A program made the position numbers and the translations under genes. Under the pieces are notes generated by a model that worked only from the letters and a program-made list of their open reading frames with translations, did not search any database and was not told the origin of the DNA. From positions 1-4,766 of IMG/VR virus record IMGVR_UViG_3300026367_000039: a stretch of DNA of 4,766 nucleotides. One strand, given 5' to 3'. Origin of the DNA: a virus. Taxonomy: Duplodnaviria > Heunggongvirae > Uroviricota > Caudoviricetes. Shown here one piece after another: positions 1-4,766 of the stretch; within the stretch, counting starts at the first letter, position 1; every line of letters begins with the position of its first letter.

Positions 1-24
1 CAATTTGGTGCGATCATAAAGCCA

Positions 25-53
25 TGAAATTACTCAGAATTGCCTACGATAAT
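25..53 (+). promoter_or_regulatory. candidate promoter for the plus-strand gene pair (weak)
   Basis: Lower-GC leader with a GATAAT -10-like hexamer at 48-53 and a poor -35 (TGAAAT, 25-30) at 17-nt spacing. Speculative. Confidence 0.12.
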
Positions 54-113
54 CAGTGCGCTGGAGCGAATGACATCACACCCAAACGATGCAACTCACC
101 ACGGAGCCACCAC

Positions 114-515
114 ATGACCACGCACGCCATCCTGCCCAGCCGCAACGAGGACCACGGGTTCTTCGGCACCCTGACCGTCTGCCCCCAGCGCGACCGCCGT
201 AGCGCGGAGGTCTGGACGCTCGCATCGACCCTGATTGCCAAAGCCATCCACGCGAACAGCGAGGACGACATGATCGGGATCCGCGACTTCCTCGACAGCT
301 GCATGGGCCGTCAATTCGCCGATGATGTGGTCAGCAACCTGATGGGTTGCAGCCTCGAGCTCGAGACCGCCATCACCTCCGCGATCCGCCGCTGGCAGGA
401 CTGGCGCATCAGCCGCCAGACCCAACGCGACGAGGGCATCCCAGCAGGCCTGCCTTACTTGACCGGCTGGGTGCAGCACTTCGCTGTCGCCGCCGCGATG
501 GCCGAGAGCGAGTGA
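114..515 (+). CDS. hypothetical protein (133 aa from ATG 114; longest ORF begins at 24)
   Basis: Open frame with strong GC3 codon bias through to TGA at 513-515. ATG at 114 is preceded by GGAG (103-106) at 7-nt spacing, whereas the ATG at 24 lies in lower-GC sequence with no Shine-Dalgarno. No family recognised by eye. Confidence 0.5.
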   Translation: MTTHAILPSRNEDHGFFGTLTVCPQRDRRSAEVWTLASTLIAKAIHANSEDDMIGIRDFLDSCMGRQFADDVVSNLMGCSLELETAITSAIRRWQDWRISRQTQRDEGIPAGLPYLTGWVQHFAVAAAMAESE

Positions 516-551
516 TCATCCCCGACATCCCCATCACGACAGGAGGCACCA

Positions 552-1133
552 ATGCCCAAACTCACCGACACCCAGACCATCGTGCTCAGCCGCGCCGCAA
601 CGCGTCCGGGCAATCTTGCGATGCCGCTGCCAGATGGCCTGCACGGCGCCGCCGCCCAGAAGGCCGTGAGCGCGATGATCACGCGCGGCTGGCTGGAAGA
701 GGTCGAAGCCGACCTTCGGCGCGGCGAGCCGCTCTGGCGCGAGACTGGCGATGGTCACGGCACCACGCTGATCGCCACCGAAGCCGGGCTTGCCGCGATC
801 GGGATCGAGCCGGTGGTGGCGACCACGATGAGCAATCTGCGCAAGGCGAAGCTGGAACTGGCCCCGGAGTTGAAAGATGCGTCCGCAGCGCAGACTGATC
901 CTGCCACGCCCAAGCCCGTCGTCCTCCGCGCGGGCACCAAGCAGGCGCAGATCATCGCATTATTGCAGCGCCCCGAGGGCGCATCGATCGGTGAGATCGT
1001 CGCAGCGACCGGTTGGATGGCCCATAGCGCCCGTGGCCTGATCTCGGGCGGCTTGAAAAAGAAGCTGGGACTGCCGATCACTGCCGAGAAAGTCGATCAG
1101 CGCGGCACCGTGTACAAACTGGTTACGGCCTGA
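552..1133 (+). CDS. DUF3489-family protein (putative winged-helix-like DNA-binding protein typical of alphaproteobacterial mobile elements)
   Basis: ATG 552 preceded by a perfect AGGAGG (541-546) at 5-nt spacing. The C-terminal segment TKQAQIIALLQRPEGASIGEIVAATGWMAHSARGLISGGLKKKLGLPI matches my recollection of the DUF3489 signature (LL.R..GAT..EI..ATGW..HS.RG..SG...KK.GL). Strong GC3 bias. Confidence 0.8.
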   Translation: MPKLTDTQTIVLSRAATRPGNLAMPLPDGLHGAAAQKAVSAMITRGWLEEVEADLRRGEPLWRETGDGHGTTLIATEAGLAAIGIEPVVATTMSNLRKAKLELAPELKDASAAQTDPATPKPVVLRAGTKQAQIIALLQRPEGASIGEIVAATGWMAHSARGLISGGLKKKLGLPITAEKVDQRGTVYKLVTA

Positions 1134-1142
1134 TCCCAGCCA

Positions 1143-1355
1143 TTACCGCCAGCGCGCGAACAGTCTGCGCAGCGCGTAGCTGCGCAGCAGGGATATGCCG
1201 ACGAAAACTGCGCCCAGCGCAAGATTGTCACCAAGGCTCGGATGCAGACCGAACCACGGGAACACCACGATCTGCGTGGCGACGGCCAGCACATAGCCCA
1301 GCGCGACATTGCTCGCGGCCTCGATCAGAGACATGCGGCGCGACTGGGCAGTCAT
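1143..1355 (-). CDS. small (70 aa) predicted two-helix membrane protein, translationally coupled to the upstream methyltransferase
   Basis: Start ATG (1355..1353) overlaps the TGA stop of the upstream gene (1354..1352) as ATGA. A strong AGGAGG (reverse complement of 1364-1369) sits 8 nt upstream. Two hydrophobic stretches (ALGYVLAVATQIVVFPWFGL and LALGAVFVGISLL) and a basic C-terminus (RRLFARWR). High GC3. Confidence 0.55.
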   Translation of the reverse strand: MTAQSRRMSLIEAASNVALGYVLAVATQIVVFPWFGLHPSLGDNLALGAVFVGISLLRSYALRRLFARWR

Positions 1356-2725
1356 GCGCGTTTCCTCCTGCGACGCGCCGGGCTCTTGGCCTCAGTTGGT
1401 TCCGCGACACGGTTGGCTGTCCGTCCCGTCGCCAGTTCCCAGCGCCGCACGGCGACGTCGCAGTAAGCGGGGTCCAGTTCCATCGCAAAACACCTCCGCC
1501 CAGCACGTTCGGCGGCCACCAGCTGGGTGCCAGAGCCGCAGAACGGCTCGTAGATCAGGTCGCCCGGATCGGTGAACGCCGTCAGCACTGCTTCAACCAG
1601 CGCCACCGGAAACACTGCGGGATGCGATCCGGCCGCGCCCAGCCCGCCCTTGTGACGCATGATGCGGAACACGCTGTCTGGGATGCGATGACTCTGGATC
1701 GCATTGCCGAAGCCCGTCTTGCGATGGACCGCGCCATCCGCCCCGCGCAAACCCCCACCGCCGAGGATCTCGCCCGCGTGCTTGCTCTCGACCGTCTTGT
1801 GCGGTTTGCGGGGCGCGCGGTTGAAGTGGAAAATGAACTCGTGCGACGGGGCCAGTCGGCCGTTCCAATCGCCCGGCAGGCCGGGCCCCTGATCCCAGAC
1901 ATACCAGCCAAACCGTCGCCAGCCAGATGCGCGCATCCATTCCACCCATCCTTCCCAATAGGGCTGCCATTCGCTGTCGCGATGCACGAGGCCAAGGTTG
2001 ACCAGCAGCTGGGCATCGGCGCAGACCGGTGCGGCAGCGAACACGCCCTGCACCAGCGCATCCCAATCGCCGACCTTTTCCTTGGCCGCGCCGTAGTCGC
2101 GTTGCTGGGCGTAGGGCGGCGAGGTGAACATCAGCGTCGCCGCCTCATTCTGCATCAGCTTGGCGACGGCGGCGGGATCGGTCGCATCGCCACAGCAGAG
2201 CCGGTGCTTGCCCAGCGCCCAGATGTCGCCCGGACGCGTGATAGGTTCAGCGGGCGGTTCGGGGATGGCGTCGGCCGCATCGTCGGAAATCACCGGGCGG
2301 TCGTCGGCGTCTGCCAACAGCGCGTCCAGTTCATCCTCGGGGATCCCGATCAGCCCGAGGTCGAAATCCTCTGCCAGCAGCGCCTGCAATTCCTGCAACA
2401 GCAGCGCTTCGTCCCAGCCGCCCAGCTCGGTTAACTTATTGTCAGCGATGCGATAAGCCCGGCGCTGCGCCTCGGTCAGATGGCCAAGAATGATGACGGG
2501 GGCCTCGGTCAGCCCAAGGTGTGCAGCTGCCAGGACGCGACCGTGGCCTGCGATCAACTCGCCATCAGCCGCGACCAGCACCGGCACGGTCCAACCGAAC
2601 TCGGCCATGCTGGCGGCGATCTTCGCGACCTGATTTGCATCGTGGGTCTTGGCGTTGCGGGCGTAAGGCTTCAGACGGGCAAGGGGCCAGTGCTCGATCC
2701 GGCCCGGCAGGATGGGTGCGTTCAT
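1352..2725 (-). CDS. ParB-like N-terminal domain fused to a beta-class DNA methyltransferase, SPPY variant (possibly N4-cytosine); 457 aa
   Basis: N-terminus MNAPILPGRIEHWPLARLKPYARNAK...DGELIAGHGRVLAAA carries the ParB/Srx-fold G-H-x-R motif. Motif IV is TSPPY, followed by HPAVFP and then the AdoMet motif I EPFCGSGTQ, i.e. beta-class order IV before I. Start placed at ATG 2725 (not the longest-ORF ATG at 2860) because the paralog alignment begins there and it forms an ATGA overlap with the upstream gene's stop. Confidence 0.85.
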   Translation of the reverse strand: MNAPILPGRIEHWPLARLKPYARNAKTHDANQVAKIAASMAEFGWTVPVLVAADGELIAGHGRVLAAAHLGLTEAPVIILGHLTEAQRRAYRIADNKLTELGGWDEALLLQELQALLAEDFDLGLIGIPEDELDALLADADDRPVISDDAADAIPEPPAEPITRPGDIWALGKHRLCCGDATDPAAVAKLMQNEAATLMFTSPPYAQQRDYGAAKEKVGDWDALVQGVFAAAPVCADAQLLVNLGLVHRDSEWQPYWEGWVEWMRASGWRRFGWYVWDQGPGLPGDWNGRLAPSHEFIFHFNRAPRKPHKTVESKHAGEILGGGGLRGADGAVHRKTGFGNAIQSHRIPDSVFRIMRHKGGLGAAGSHPAVFPVALVEAVLTAFTDPGDLIYEPFCGSGTQLVAAERAGRRCFAMELDPAYCDVAVRRWELATGRTANRVAEPTEAKSPARRRRKRA

Positions 2726-3981
2726 GCCGCCAGCCTCTTCGCCTTCAGGTCGGCAAAAGTCTCGCCAGTCTCGACCAGCGCGGCATTGGCGCCGGTGAAC
2801 TGCTGCCAGCGCTCGATGGCGACATCGACGTAAGCCGGGTTCAATTCGATGCCGAAGCACACGCGCCCGGTGGTTTCCGCCGCGATCAGCGTTGTGCCGG
2901 ACCCCATGAAAGGTTCAAACACCGCCTGACCGGGGCTGGAGTTGTTCAGGATCGGCCGGCGCATGCATTCGACCGGCTTTTGCGTGCCGTGCACGGTGGC
3001 AGCGTCCTGATCCTTGCCGGAGATGTGCCACAGCGTGGTCTGTTTCCGGTCCCCGGCCCAGTGGCCCTTGCCGGTCTTCTTCACCGCGTACCAGCAGGGT
3101 TCATGCTGCCAGTGATAGTCGCCCCGGCTGAGAACCAGCCGGTCCTTTGCCCAGATGATCTGCGAGCGCACGTTGAAGCCTGCCGCCACCAGGCTTTCCG
3201 CGACGGTCGCCGCGTGCAGCGCGCCATGCCAGACGTAAGCCACGTCGCCTGGGAACAGCGCCCAAGCCTCGCGCCAATCCGCGCGGTCATCGTTCAGCAC
3301 CTTGCCTATGCGCTTGGTTTTGGCGGCCCCCGCCTGGTTGCGCCAGGATGGGTCATATTCCACGCCATAGGGCGGGTCCGTCACCATCAGCAGAGGGCGA
3401 ATATCGCCCAGCAATCGCCCGACCACATCCGCAGACGTGCTGTCGCCGCAGATCAGCCGGTGCGATCCCAGCTGCCAAAGGTCGCCCACAACCGACACCG
3501 GCGTGACCGGCGGTTCGGGAATGTCATCCTCTCCGTCGGCAGCGCCACCTTCCAACTGGTCCGGGTCGCGCAGCAATGCATCCAGATCCTCGTCGGTGAT
3601 GCCCAGCAGCGACAGGTCGAAATCGTCGGCGAGCAGTCCCGCGATCTCATCGCGCAGCATCGCCTCGTCCCACTCGCCCAGCTCGGTCAATTTGTTGTCC
3701 GCGATCCGGTAGGCGCGGCGCTCTGCCTCGTCGAGATGGCTGAGCCGGATCACCGGCACATCCTTCAGCCCCAGCATGGCGGCCGCCAGCACACGGCCAT
3801 GCCCCGCGATCAGCTCGCCATCGTCGGCCACCATGCAGGGCACTGTCCAGCCGAACTTTGCCATGCTTGCTGCGATCTTGGCAACCTGGTCGGTGCCGTG
3901 GATCTTGGCGTTGCGGGCATAGGGGCGCAGCCGGTCAATCGGCCACGTCTCGATCTGGCTCGGTGCAAAGACCAGGTCCAT
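2722..3981 (-). CDS. ParB-like N-terminal domain fused to a beta-class N6-adenine DNA methyltransferase (CcrM/HinfI-like motifs); 419 aa
   Basis: N-terminus MDLVFAPSQIETWPIDRLRPYARNAK...DGELIAGHGRVLAAA (ParB-like). Motif IV VTDPPYG, then HGTQKP and FEPFMGSGTT, matching the CcrM-type DPPY / TQKP / FxGxGTT pattern in beta-class order. Strong GC3 bias; TGA stop at 2724..2722. Confidence 0.9.
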   Translation of the reverse strand: MDLVFAPSQIETWPIDRLRPYARNAKIHGTDQVAKIAASMAKFGWTVPCMVADDGELIAGHGRVLAAAMLGLKDVPVIRLSHLDEAERRAYRIADNKLTELGEWDEAMLRDEIAGLLADDFDLSLLGITDEDLDALLRDPDQLEGGAADGEDDIPEPPVTPVSVVGDLWQLGSHRLICGDSTSADVVGRLLGDIRPLLMVTDPPYGVEYDPSWRNQAGAAKTKRIGKVLNDDRADWREAWALFPGDVAYVWHGALHAATVAESLVAAGFNVRSQIIWAKDRLVLSRGDYHWQHEPCWYAVKKTGKGHWAGDRKQTTLWHISGKDQDAATVHGTQKPVECMRRPILNNSSPGQAVFEPFMGSGTTLIAAETTGRVCFGIELNPAYVDVAIERWQQFTGANAALVETGETFADLKAKRLAA

Positions 3982-4105
3982 GGGCGGTTCTCATTTGGGC
4001 AGAGCGGGCATGCCAACGGGCGCGGGCAATATGGCCAGCGACAGGATCGGGATCCGCGATGTGGGGGAAAACGAAAGCGCCCGAGAGGGGTGTCATCCGG
4101 GCGCA

Positions 4106-4133
4106 ATTCTTCGATGATTAAGAGGTACGTCAA
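4106..4133 (-). promoter_or_regulatory. candidate sigma70-like promoter for the methyltransferase operon (weak)
   Basis: On the minus strand, TTGACG (reverse complement of 4128-4133), a 16-nt spacer, then AAGAAT (reverse complement of 4106-4111), about 120 nt upstream of ATG 3981. The -10 match is only 4/6, so this is a by-eye guess. Confidence 0.15.
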
Positions 4134-4220
4134 GGGGGCTAGAAATGTCAACCCATTTTATGACGTGGAATCAACGCGTTCTGCGGGTTCGGGGTTTGCG
4201 GGGAAAAGCCGGTGTCGCGA

Positions 4221-4270
4221 GTGGCTTTCCGGGGTGGCTTTCTGGCCAGCGTGGCTACCAAAAAGTGGCT
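4221..4270. repeat. array of four direct GTGGCT(T) repeats (iteron-like or operator-like)
   Basis: GTGGCT at 4221, 4234, 4251 and 4265 (GTGGCTTTCC, GTGGCTTTCT, GTGGCTACCA, GTGGCTTGCC), spaced 13, 17 and 14 bp. About 0.01 occurrences of one oriented hexamer are expected by chance in 50 bp. Confidence 0.6.
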
Positions 4271-4274
4271 TGCC

Positions 4275-4295
4275 TGGATTCCACCGAGGAATCCA
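4275..4295. repeat. perfect 8-bp inverted repeat TGGATTCC-N5-GGAATCCA (candidate dimeric protein-binding site)
   Basis: TGGATTCC (4275-4282) and GGAATCCA (4288-4295) are exact reverse complements around the spacer ACCGA. Each arm contains a GANTC site. It lies immediately after the GTGGCT array. Confidence 0.6.
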
Positions 4296-4351
4296 CTTAG
4301 CCAGAAGGGTGAGACCCTAAGCATTTGATAATGAGTCAAAATTCAGGGTCG

Positions 4352-4397
4352 AGCCACTGGCTTGGCTTCGAAGTGGATTCCCCGGTGAAAAAGCCAC
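4352..4397. repeat. two opposite-orientation copies of the GTGGCT motif flanking TGGCTT repeats and a third TGGATTCC
   Basis: AGCCAC (reverse complement of GTGGCT) at 4352-4357 and 4392-4397; TGGCTT at 4358-4363 and 4363-4368; TGGATTCC again at 4374-4381. Confidence 0.5.
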
Positions 4398-4421
4398 GCG
4401 CTAGCGAAATGCCGCGCTAAG

Positions 4422-4468
4422 CCCCCCCGTATACGGATAGGGCCGGGGAGGAACCATGCTGGGGGGGG
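4422..4468. other. C7 homopolymer, 10-bp perfect palindrome CCGTATACGG, and G8 homopolymer
   Basis: C-tract 4422-4428, palindrome 4427-4436, G-tract 4461-4468. The C and G tracts are complementary and could pair, or could act as slipped-strand tracts. Confidence 0.5.
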
Positions 4469-4486
4469 TCGTGTCGGTTCCGGCCC
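4440..4486. other. GC-rich imperfect hairpin (about 11 bp of stem, 20-nt loop)
   Basis: GGGCCG (4440-4445) pairs with CGGCCC (4481-4486) and GAACC (4451-4455) pairs with GGTTC (4476-4480). No downstream T-tract, so it is not a typical intrinsic terminator. Confidence 0.35.
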
Positions 4487-4535
4487 ATTGCTGCCTTTCG
4501 CCCACCCTCGGTTATGCTGCACTGCGGTCCGCCAT

Positions 4536-4613
4536 TGCGGACTTTCGCTGCAACTGCGAAATATGATGTATAGCGAATTCACAGAGTGCGGACAAAGTTA
4601 GCATTCGCTGCAA
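4536..4613. repeat. two-copy direct repeat module TGCGGAC ... TTCGCTGCAA
   Basis: TGCGGAC at 4536-4542 and 4587-4593; TTCGCTGCAA at 4544-4553 and 4604-4613. The first copy is embedded in the small inverted repeat TTCGC-N7-GCGAA (4544-4560). Confidence 0.5.
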
Positions 4614-4766
4614 GTGCCCCATTGGCTGCTTCGTTGGCGCGAGGGTTCAGTTCTCTGTTACTGTCAAAATCCAGTCTGTAATTTGATCAAGCGAGTGTTT
4701 GGCAAATGCTTTTCGTCCCATCCCCAAATAGATATATTGCAGGTACCAAGGCCATTGAGATGTGAG

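Follow-up and report, generated by a model that had tools for sequence, protein, structure and literature searches.

The stretch of DNA analysed here (the window, 4,766 nt) is positions 1 to 4,766 of IMG/VR virus record IMGVR_UViG_3300026367_000039, assigned to the Caudoviricetes, and represents the DNA-modification operon of a temperate Rhodobacteraceae phage with a lambda-like head module. This operon consists of three co-directional genes, two for paralogous DNA methyltransferases and a last one for a membrane protein of 70 amino acids (aa) that belongs to the Pfam family DUF7220. With moderate confidence, we regard this small protein as an independent phage membrane module and not as a partner of the methylases. 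A sequence-only reading of the window had called a membrane partner for the methylases unexpected and had suggested, among other roles, that it could be a third component of their module; the family at large lends this no support, as most of its members are encoded beside replication or nucleotide-metabolism genes with no methylase nearby. The three genes of the chain are as follows.

3981..2722, minus strand: methyltransferase A, 419 aa, read from the sequence
2725..1352, minus strand: methyltransferase B, 457 aa, starting with the ATG at 2725
1355..1143, minus strand: DUF7220 gene, 70 aa, the last gene of the chain

The DUF7220 gene and its genomic neighbours

The proposal that the small open reading frame (ORF) at the end of the chain is a real gene was fully supported. 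Its product matches DUF7220 (PF23858) with 110.8 bits against a cut-off of 28, residues 4-69 aligning with positions 2-69 of the 70-position profile, and it also matches PHROG 4276 (phrog_4276) with an E-value of 7.6e-21. Across 106 distinct close relatives dN/dS is 0.17, and the entropies of the three codon positions (0.50/0.24/1.09) show the pattern of coding sequence, with third-position variation 4.5 times that of the second position. The gene is real and under purifying selection. In a large protein collection clustered at 90% identity, homologues were found in 1,176 protein clusters with the single sequence as query and in 3,639 clusters with a profile built from distant members, which puts the family size at no less than 3,600 clusters. 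DUF7220 is a very large family restricted to phages and prophages, some members of which have N-terminal extensions or occur as tandem fusions. A search of the literature for 'DUF7220' returned no paper or experiment addressing the family. Among NCBIfam models, only ArnF gave a match to the small protein, at chance level (E 0.051, 14 bits vs a cut-off of 99), and this identity was dismissed as compositional; no PADLOC family matched at E <= 0.01. The copy of the gene in Roseovarius amoyensis (locus L153, 4954-5208) is frameshifted after residue 52 and adjoins a fragmented methylase B gene, as befits a decaying prophage copy.

For the analysis of genomic neighbours, all DUF7220 loci were grouped into 81 clusters, 57 of them outside the close lineage of the window, and same-strand ORFs within 2.5 kb were compared with Pfam. 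A methylase gene lies upstream of DUF7220 in only four of the 57 distant clusters, the other 53 having none within 2.5 kb upstream. The same-strand neighbours within 2.5 kb encode dATP/dGTP diphosphohydrolase (dGTP_diPhyd_N, 16 hits), family A DNA polymerase (DNA_pol_A, 10 hits), exonucleases, YqaJ/RecT, DnaB, SSB, ligase, ribonucleotide reductase (RNR), MazG, dCTP deaminase, dUTPase, Thy1 and SNF2 helicases. The N-terminal domain of the dATP/dGTP diphosphohydrolase (PF18909) marks the commonest distant neighbour (loci L172-L269) and is encoded immediately upstream in 8 of 74 representatives. An initial rule for choosing the upstream gene, which took the longest ORF ending near the DUF7220 start, picks spurious ORFs in high-GC DNA, and the 10 N6_N4 methylase matches that it gave are a lower bound.

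The gene directly upstream of DUF7220 varies, encoding a diphosphohydrolase, an exonuclease, RtcB, a primase or small ORFs. T7-like Ralstonia phages carry DUF7220 between an exonuclease gene and the portal gene, a Mesorhizobium phage carries it after RtcB, and in lambdoid prophages it is part of the early-left recombination operon; Xanthomonas phage Mallos provides a further example of a DUF7220 locus independent of methylases. Phage records gave a similar picture. DUF7220 is present in 74 of them, from phages of Xanthomonas, Ralstonia, Pseudomonas and others, and homologues of the ParB-methylases are present in 363, mainly from phages of Streptococcus, Gordonia, Porphyromonas, Wolbachia and gut Firmicutes, none of which is represented among the 74 DUF7220 records.

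Gene order and translation in the close lineage

Direct reading of the sequence confirmed the stop/start overlaps claimed for both junctions of the chain. Positions 2722-2725 and 1352-1355 read TCAT on the plus strand, i.e. ATGA on the minus strand, and in each case the TGA stop codon of the upstream gene overlaps the ATG start codon of the downstream gene, so that the description of the three genes as one co-directional unit stands. The start of methylase B at 2725 agrees with that of its relatives, which align from residue 1 and are called with the same 4-nt overlap. In the gene table of a related prophage (L280), 4-nt overlaps are the commonest junction type, accounting for 9 of 22 same-strand junctions, and two ATGA overlaps in a row are therefore expected fairly often. 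By itself, the ATGA chain is not beyond chance, unlike the DUF7220 ORF.

Conservation of the arrangement was examined in 160 related loci from viral and genome collections, 132 of which include 1,400 nt or more of sequence before DUF7220; methylase neighbours in this close lineage were identified by tblastn. A same-strand ParB-methylase gene precedes DUF7220 in 123 of the 132 loci, and its stop codon overlaps the DUF7220 start codon by 4 nt in 59 loci and by 1 nt in 14 (73 of 123 together). Most of the remaining loci have an extra ORF of ~165 aa in between, itself joined by 4-nt overlaps. The immediate upstream neighbour can be either an A-type or a B-type methylase. The expected co-occurrence of the small gene with upstream ParB-methylases was thus found in the close lineage and failed to extend to the distant clusters, with only 4 of 57. 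In two relatives (L003 and L026), methylase B is reduced to a fragment and DUF7220 is intact.

Some relatives encode methylase A alone and others A plus B. The chain of some relatives is interrupted by unrelated ORFs without a Pfam match (167-169 aa), placed between the two methylase genes or between the methylase B gene and DUF7220 (L001, 1759-2262; L008, 3067-3576). The ORF in L008 overlaps each of its neighbours by 4 nt; the one in L001 overlaps its upstream neighbour by 4 nt and is separated from the downstream one by 2 nt.

The persistence of the overlap with the preceding methylase in 73 of the 123 close loci, even where a Shine-Dalgarno (SD) sequence is lacking, fits the translational coupling proposed for the chain. 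The three genes would be read from one transcript, and ribosomes that end one gene would restart on the next by termination-reinitiation. The window itself has the following site in front of the small gene.

1364..1369, minus strand: AGGAGG Shine-Dalgarno sequence (CCTCCT on the plus strand), 8 nt before the DUF7220 ATG

This AGGAGG is built from two AGG arginine codons in the tail of the methylase B gene. The predicted energy of the duplex with the anti-SD sequence is -10.3 kcal/mol for DUF7220, -6.0 kcal/mol for methylase B and -2.7 kcal/mol for methylase A, so the small gene does have the strongest ribosome-binding site among the three, as had been claimed, with the qualification that only a few relatives share the AGGAGG of the window. 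An anti-SD energy of -10.3 kcal/mol is likewise predicted for the DUF3489 gene on the opposite strand. In the relatives, median SD pairing in front of DUF7220 is -3.6 kcal/mol after A-type and -5.9 kcal/mol after B-type methylases, and many of them have no SD at all. Weak SD sequences are to be expected if DUF7220 depends for its translation on ribosomes coming straight from the end of the preceding gene; in the window, the added AGGAGG would boost the DUF7220 gene. At the other end of the small gene, it and the convergent DUF3489 gene end 9 nt apart (1133-1143) with no hairpin between them. The sole terminator-like match nearby (1222-1208, minus strand) falls within the coding part of DUF7220 and probably arose by chance.

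Membrane topology and candidate roles of DUF7220

The description of the 70-aa protein as one with two hydrophobic helices is borne out by both hydropathy and a structure model. Two hydrophobic segments cover approximately residues 13-37 and 43-59, the AlphaFold model has helices at residues 4-34 and 41-69 joined by a short loop, and arginines are found at both ends of the protein. These basic termini suggest an inner-membrane hairpin with the predicted topology N-in/C-in. The protein carries the family pattern Q..S..E...N / P / N.L / S..R.Y..RR, shared by members of ~70-85 aa with two hydrophobic helices, and in 112 sequences the invariant columns are Q4, E12, N16, P33, R58, Y60, R63 and R64. 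Invariant or nearly invariant residues line one face of helix 1 (N16, G20, A24, Q28) and one face of helix 2 (N44, G48, F51, S55, R58), and a conserved patch on the predicted cytoplasmic side is formed by Q4, S9, E12, R58, Y60, R63 and R64. The predicted periplasmic loop is short and variable.

Three related proteins (P0121, P0122 and P0123, from loci L275 and L276) are natural tandem fusions of two DUF7220 units, 145-152 aa in length. The fused protein is modelled as a four-helix bundle with a pLDDT of 83.1 and a pTM of 0.73, compared with only 67.8 for the single-unit model. Because such fusions occur naturally and the four-helix bundle is modelled with confidence, we suggest that the single-unit protein forms at least a dimer, also as a four-helix bundle. 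A search of solved structures by sequence, using the 112-sequence profile, gave no match even at E 10, and a fold search of solved structures returned generic helical bundles only.

As an independent module, DUF7220 would be a self-contained inner-membrane factor made together with early or middle DNA-metabolism genes in many unrelated phages. In the lineage of the window, it would merely sit last in the methylase operon, at the place where the DNA-metabolism genes end. Its most likely job would be to act on the host inner membrane, possibly by binding a conserved host membrane component, by altering permeability or by excluding incoming DNA; this job is a guess, and the moderate confidence stated above attaches to the independence of the module. 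A number of observations weigh against this independence. Methylase synteny within the lineage is very strong (123 of 132 loci). Outside it, the gene immediately before DUF7220 encodes a C-5 cytosine methylase in Vibrio phage 1.021.A and a methylase of the DUF4942/MTS type in phiPSA1-type phages of Pseudomonas, and a C-5 methylase is encoded two genes upstream of it in a Pseudomonas prophage. The conserved surface, predicted to face the cytoplasm, would suit a cytoplasmic partner, and the dimer is suggested by the fusions and by one model. The neighbour counts, for their part, derive from simple ORF calling in ~75 cluster representatives out of thousands. A looser functional link of DUF7220 to DNA modification may therefore still exist.

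The sequence-only reading had offered entry exclusion, immunity and a holin-like function as roles for the small protein. By analogy with T4 Imm or HK97 gp15, DUF7220 could be an early superinfection-exclusion or immunity protein that blocks DNA entry of later phages, a role that we consider rather unlikely. Its size, its two-helix inner-membrane build, its position in early or middle operons of lytic and temperate phages alike and its lack of linkage to lysis genes would all be in keeping with such a function. However, exclusion proteins are usually phage-specific and fast-evolving, and DUF7220 has the same motifs in T7-like, lambdoid and large phages, the hosts of which belong to many phyla. 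Furthermore, it is the predicted cytoplasmic surface that is conserved and not the short periplasmic loop, no PADLOC defence model was matched, and the gene is coupled here to lytic-type methylase genes and is not a separately expressed moron.

The strong synteny raises the question of whether DUF7220 is a membrane tether or regulator that keeps the ParB-methylases, or other DNA enzymes encoded upstream of it, at the sites on the inner membrane where phage DNA enters or is replicated. Such a function, a version of the third-component idea, would account for its position directly after a methylase gene in the close loci, with overlapping codons in 73 of them, for its adjacency to three unrelated methylase families, for the clustering of invariant residues on the cytoplasmic side and for the location of the gene inside DNA-metabolism modules in all phage types. 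Such a tether is nevertheless unlikely, given that a methylase is missing from the 2.5 kb upstream of DUF7220 in 53 of the 57 distant clusters and the upstream gene is variable, that most phage ParB-methylases, including all those from Gram-positive hosts, are found without DUF7220, that the cytoplasmic tails are only ~10 residues long, and that DUF7220 outlives the decay of methylase B.

In a further, distinctly unlikely proposal, DUF7220 would be a new kind of early phage membrane device, for instance a dimeric four-helix pore or an anchor. In the anchor variant, the conserved cytoplasmic patch may bring enzymes of DNA modification or nucleotide metabolism, or else a universal host factor, to the inner membrane where phage DNA enters or is copied. 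If DUF7220 is such a device, its recurrent position after methylases of three unrelated families would point to a genuine functional connection between membrane location and the protection of phage DNA.

A role in lysis timing as a holin, pinholin or antiholin appears very improbable. The protein does resemble these factors in its length of ~70 aa, two helices, predicted N-in/C-in topology and basic C-terminus, its gene lies downstream of a conserved leader with a promoter-like site and a terminator-like hairpin (see below), and one UniRef entry of the family is named 'Holin', with two JGI entries named 'putative effector of murein hydrolase'. These database names are automatic annotations, however, and neither in the window nor in close relatives does a gene for a lysozyme, amidase or peptidase lie close to DUF7220, which has no endolysin neighbour there. 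In the 57 distant loci, the same-strand ORFs downstream of it include just two Phage_lysozyme matches. Several phages with DUF7220 have a separate lysis cassette, which in Vibrio phage 1.021.A consists of genes for a membrane protein, a lysozyme and another membrane protein, and in T7-like and lambdoid phages DUF7220 is located among replication and recombination genes. M1 and M8 could act as the dual start of a holin, an idea that was set aside because M8 varies across the family and residues 4-7 show conservation at the protein level.

Finally, the view of the small ORF as a chance ORF or decaying remnant with meaningless ATGA overlaps, for which one could cite the high frequency of 4-nt overlaps (9 of 22 junctions) and the frameshifted L153 copy, is refuted by its Pfam score of 110.8 bits, thousands of length-conserved homologues, dN/dS of 0.17 and third-position variation, and its probability is practically nil.

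Methyltransferases, phage setting and known systems

Methylases A and B share one architecture, an N6_N4 DNA methylase with a ParB-like domain fused to its N-terminus. The Pfam N6_N4_Mtase model matches A with 77.3 bits and B with 71.9 bits (cut-off 26.7). Pfam ParB_N is sub-threshold in the methylases, at 14.8-15.9 bits vs a cut-off of 26.3 (14.8 bits for A), and TIGR00180 gives a weak match to the same domain; the PHROG ParB-like families 620 and 15396 match residues 8-150 with E-values of 1e-46 to 1e-50. Methylase A matches phrog_498 (E 2.5e-154), the ParB-like phrog_620 (E 1.7e-49) and, at full length, the PADLOC family MTase_II PDLC03229 (E 6.8e-104); methylase B matches phrog_498 (E 7.8e-118). 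In the translations, motif IV reads DPPY in A and SPPY in B and precedes motif I, F(M/C)GSGT in the methylases and FMGSGTT in A. Judged by these sequence features, A and B belong to the phage-type ParB-fold/N6_N4 DNA methyltransferase fusions. They are paralogues, ~60% identical in the ParB part and ~45% identical in the C-terminal methylase part. DPPY and SPPY methylases may differ in target base. Given this motif difference, A and B may methylate different bases, N6-adenine and N4-cytosine.

No cognate restriction endonuclease was found, either in the window or in those close-relative loci for which Pfam-annotated gene tables were examined; in all of these the operon contains only methylases, small ORFs without a Pfam match and DUF7220. 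With no restriction enzyme nearby, A and B are orphan methylases.

A metagenomic contig that encodes an identical 70-aa protein shows the wider setting. On this contig a convergent block (DUF3489 ... DUF6900) comes after the operon, and beyond it lie genes for a GpA-type terminase, a lambda-type portal protein (Phage_portal_2), an S49 protease, a head-decoration protein (HDPD) and an E-type major capsid protein. Longer relatives start with an integrase gene, small HTH genes, an HTH_36 replication-type gene, variable cargo and a leader of ~490 nt, and continue with the methylase gene or genes, DUF7220, the convergent block and the packaging and head genes. The cargo includes toxin-antitoxin pairs, UmuDC-like genes, a restriction-modification gene and IS91. 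Among plasmids, a DUF7220 homologue is present in only 10 of 72,556 records, all of them larger than 165 kb and none typed as conjugative. The setting of conjugation and entry exclusion envisaged earlier does not fit, as genes for phage packaging and the phage head flank the locus and DUF7220 is nearly absent from plasmids.

The region upstream of the operon contains the following features.

3982..4470 (~490 nt), minus strand: conserved leader without a clear ORF, upstream of the operon
4106..4133, minus strand: promoter-like site (TTGACG, 16 nt, AAGAAT), ~125 nt upstream of the methylase A start
4077-4104, minus strand: hairpin followed by TTTCGTTTT at 4068-4076, terminator-like
4279-4298 / 4371-4390: 20-nt inverted repeat in the leader

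The leader is conserved with 70-77% nucleotide identity in most of ~87 matching loci (89% in L001) and has a sharp end at ~4468-4470. A prophage end near 4470 was ruled out, as the gene tables show variable cargo between the replication genes and the leader. A cluster of GTGGCTT/GTGGATT heptamers occupies positions 4221-4397, and GGAATCC heptamers are also present in the leader. GTGGCTT occurs 5 times vs 0.59 expected, a number reached in 0 of 200 shuffles. On the basis of the sequence, these heptamers could form an array of operator or activator sites. The promoter-like site is a consensus match from a consensus scan, and the block TTGAC(G/C)TA...ATCATCGAAGAAT is conserved in 75 distinct related sequences. 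The hairpin, the stem of which starts 2 nt after the -10-like hexamer, has a fold energy of -18.4 kcal/mol (z -1.3). A comparison of 34 relatives gave 10 consensus pairs, of which 3 show compensatory double changes, and the T tract is conserved as well. The hairpin looks like a terminator that overlaps the operon's own putative promoter; it probably stops read-through from upstream cargo genes, rather than acting on the promoter's own transcripts.

Accessory genes seem to have a hot spot between the replication genes and this operon. Cargo spots beyond the leader were identified at 4470-4766 in the window and, in relatives, at L277 6475-8262, L280 3180-6884, L281 559-3419 and L003 5244-7343, and the kinds of cargo found include Fic with PhdYeFM/YoeB, DUF4411/Peptidase_M78 with UmuDC-like genes, AAA_13 with an HsdM/Eco57I-type methylase, and IS91 with an integrase. 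One of these elements, L277 (Oceaniglobus ichthyenteri QAGK01000004, 197513-217719), encodes an integrase, replication-type genes, a methylase, DUF7220 and the DUF3489 block, followed directly by host rhamnose and glycosyltransferase genes; genes for packaging and the head are absent, and the element may be either what is left of a prophage or a satellite-like element. At the other end of the window, an ORF of 163 aa on the plus strand (24-515) matches phrog_8020 and has no Pfam match. Because its relatives are called as 133 aa, its true start is probably the ATG at 114 (preceded by GGAG, -5.8 kcal/mol) and not the ATG at 24. Scans of the window for tRNA and Rfam families gave no matches.

Several components of this operon are known already, namely the type of methylase fusion, the DUF7220 family and the three-gene chain itself, which is present in the sequenced Acidithiobacillus phage AcaML1 (JX507079). 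Gp24-Gp25-Gp26 of AcaML1 are likewise two ParB-type methylases and DUF7220, all joined by 4-nt overlaps, and they are likewise followed by a convergent block with relatives of the DUF3489 gene and of the 163-aa ORF and then by Nu1/GpA terminase and portal genes. AcaML1, which infects an acidophilic gammaproteobacterium-like organism, differs in sequence, its small protein being only 59% and its methylases 44-55% identical to those of the window, and its Gp26 has a GTG start, is 78 aa long and is annotated as a hypothetical protein. The odd-looking pairing of methylases with a membrane protein thus turns out to be an ordinary phage operon, in a setting that is corrected from conjugation to prophage.

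Fusions of the ParB-CTPase fold with N6_N4 methylases are enriched in phages and prophages, and an anti-defence role has been suggested for them in a survey (PMC12704722). The methylases of Wolbachia WO prophages are fusions of the same kind (PMC3089641), and Wolbachia WO is among the 363 phage records with ParB-methylase homologues. The passages of the survey consulted here describe no linked membrane gene (PMC12704722); in the window, DPPY and SPPY paralogues are encoded in tandem.

The window protein shares its length, two helices and invariant residues with PF23858/PHROG 4276, a family without an assigned function. DUF7220 ranks among the more widespread small membrane proteins of phages infecting Gram-negative bacteria, being found in T7-like, lambdoid and large phages, and a role established for it in one tractable phage could annotate thousands of genes. 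Among small phage membrane proteins, T4 Imm and HK97 gp15 reportedly act in exclusion, S21 of phage 21 is said to be a pinholin, and p16.7 of phi29 is said to serve as a replication anchor. These proteins are similar to DUF7220 in size and in their hairpin or single-pass membrane build, and some of them are expressed early with DNA-metabolism genes. DUF7220 differs from S21 in having no endolysin neighbour and from p16.7 in having no soluble DNA-binding domain, and it is conserved far more broadly than typical exclusion proteins.

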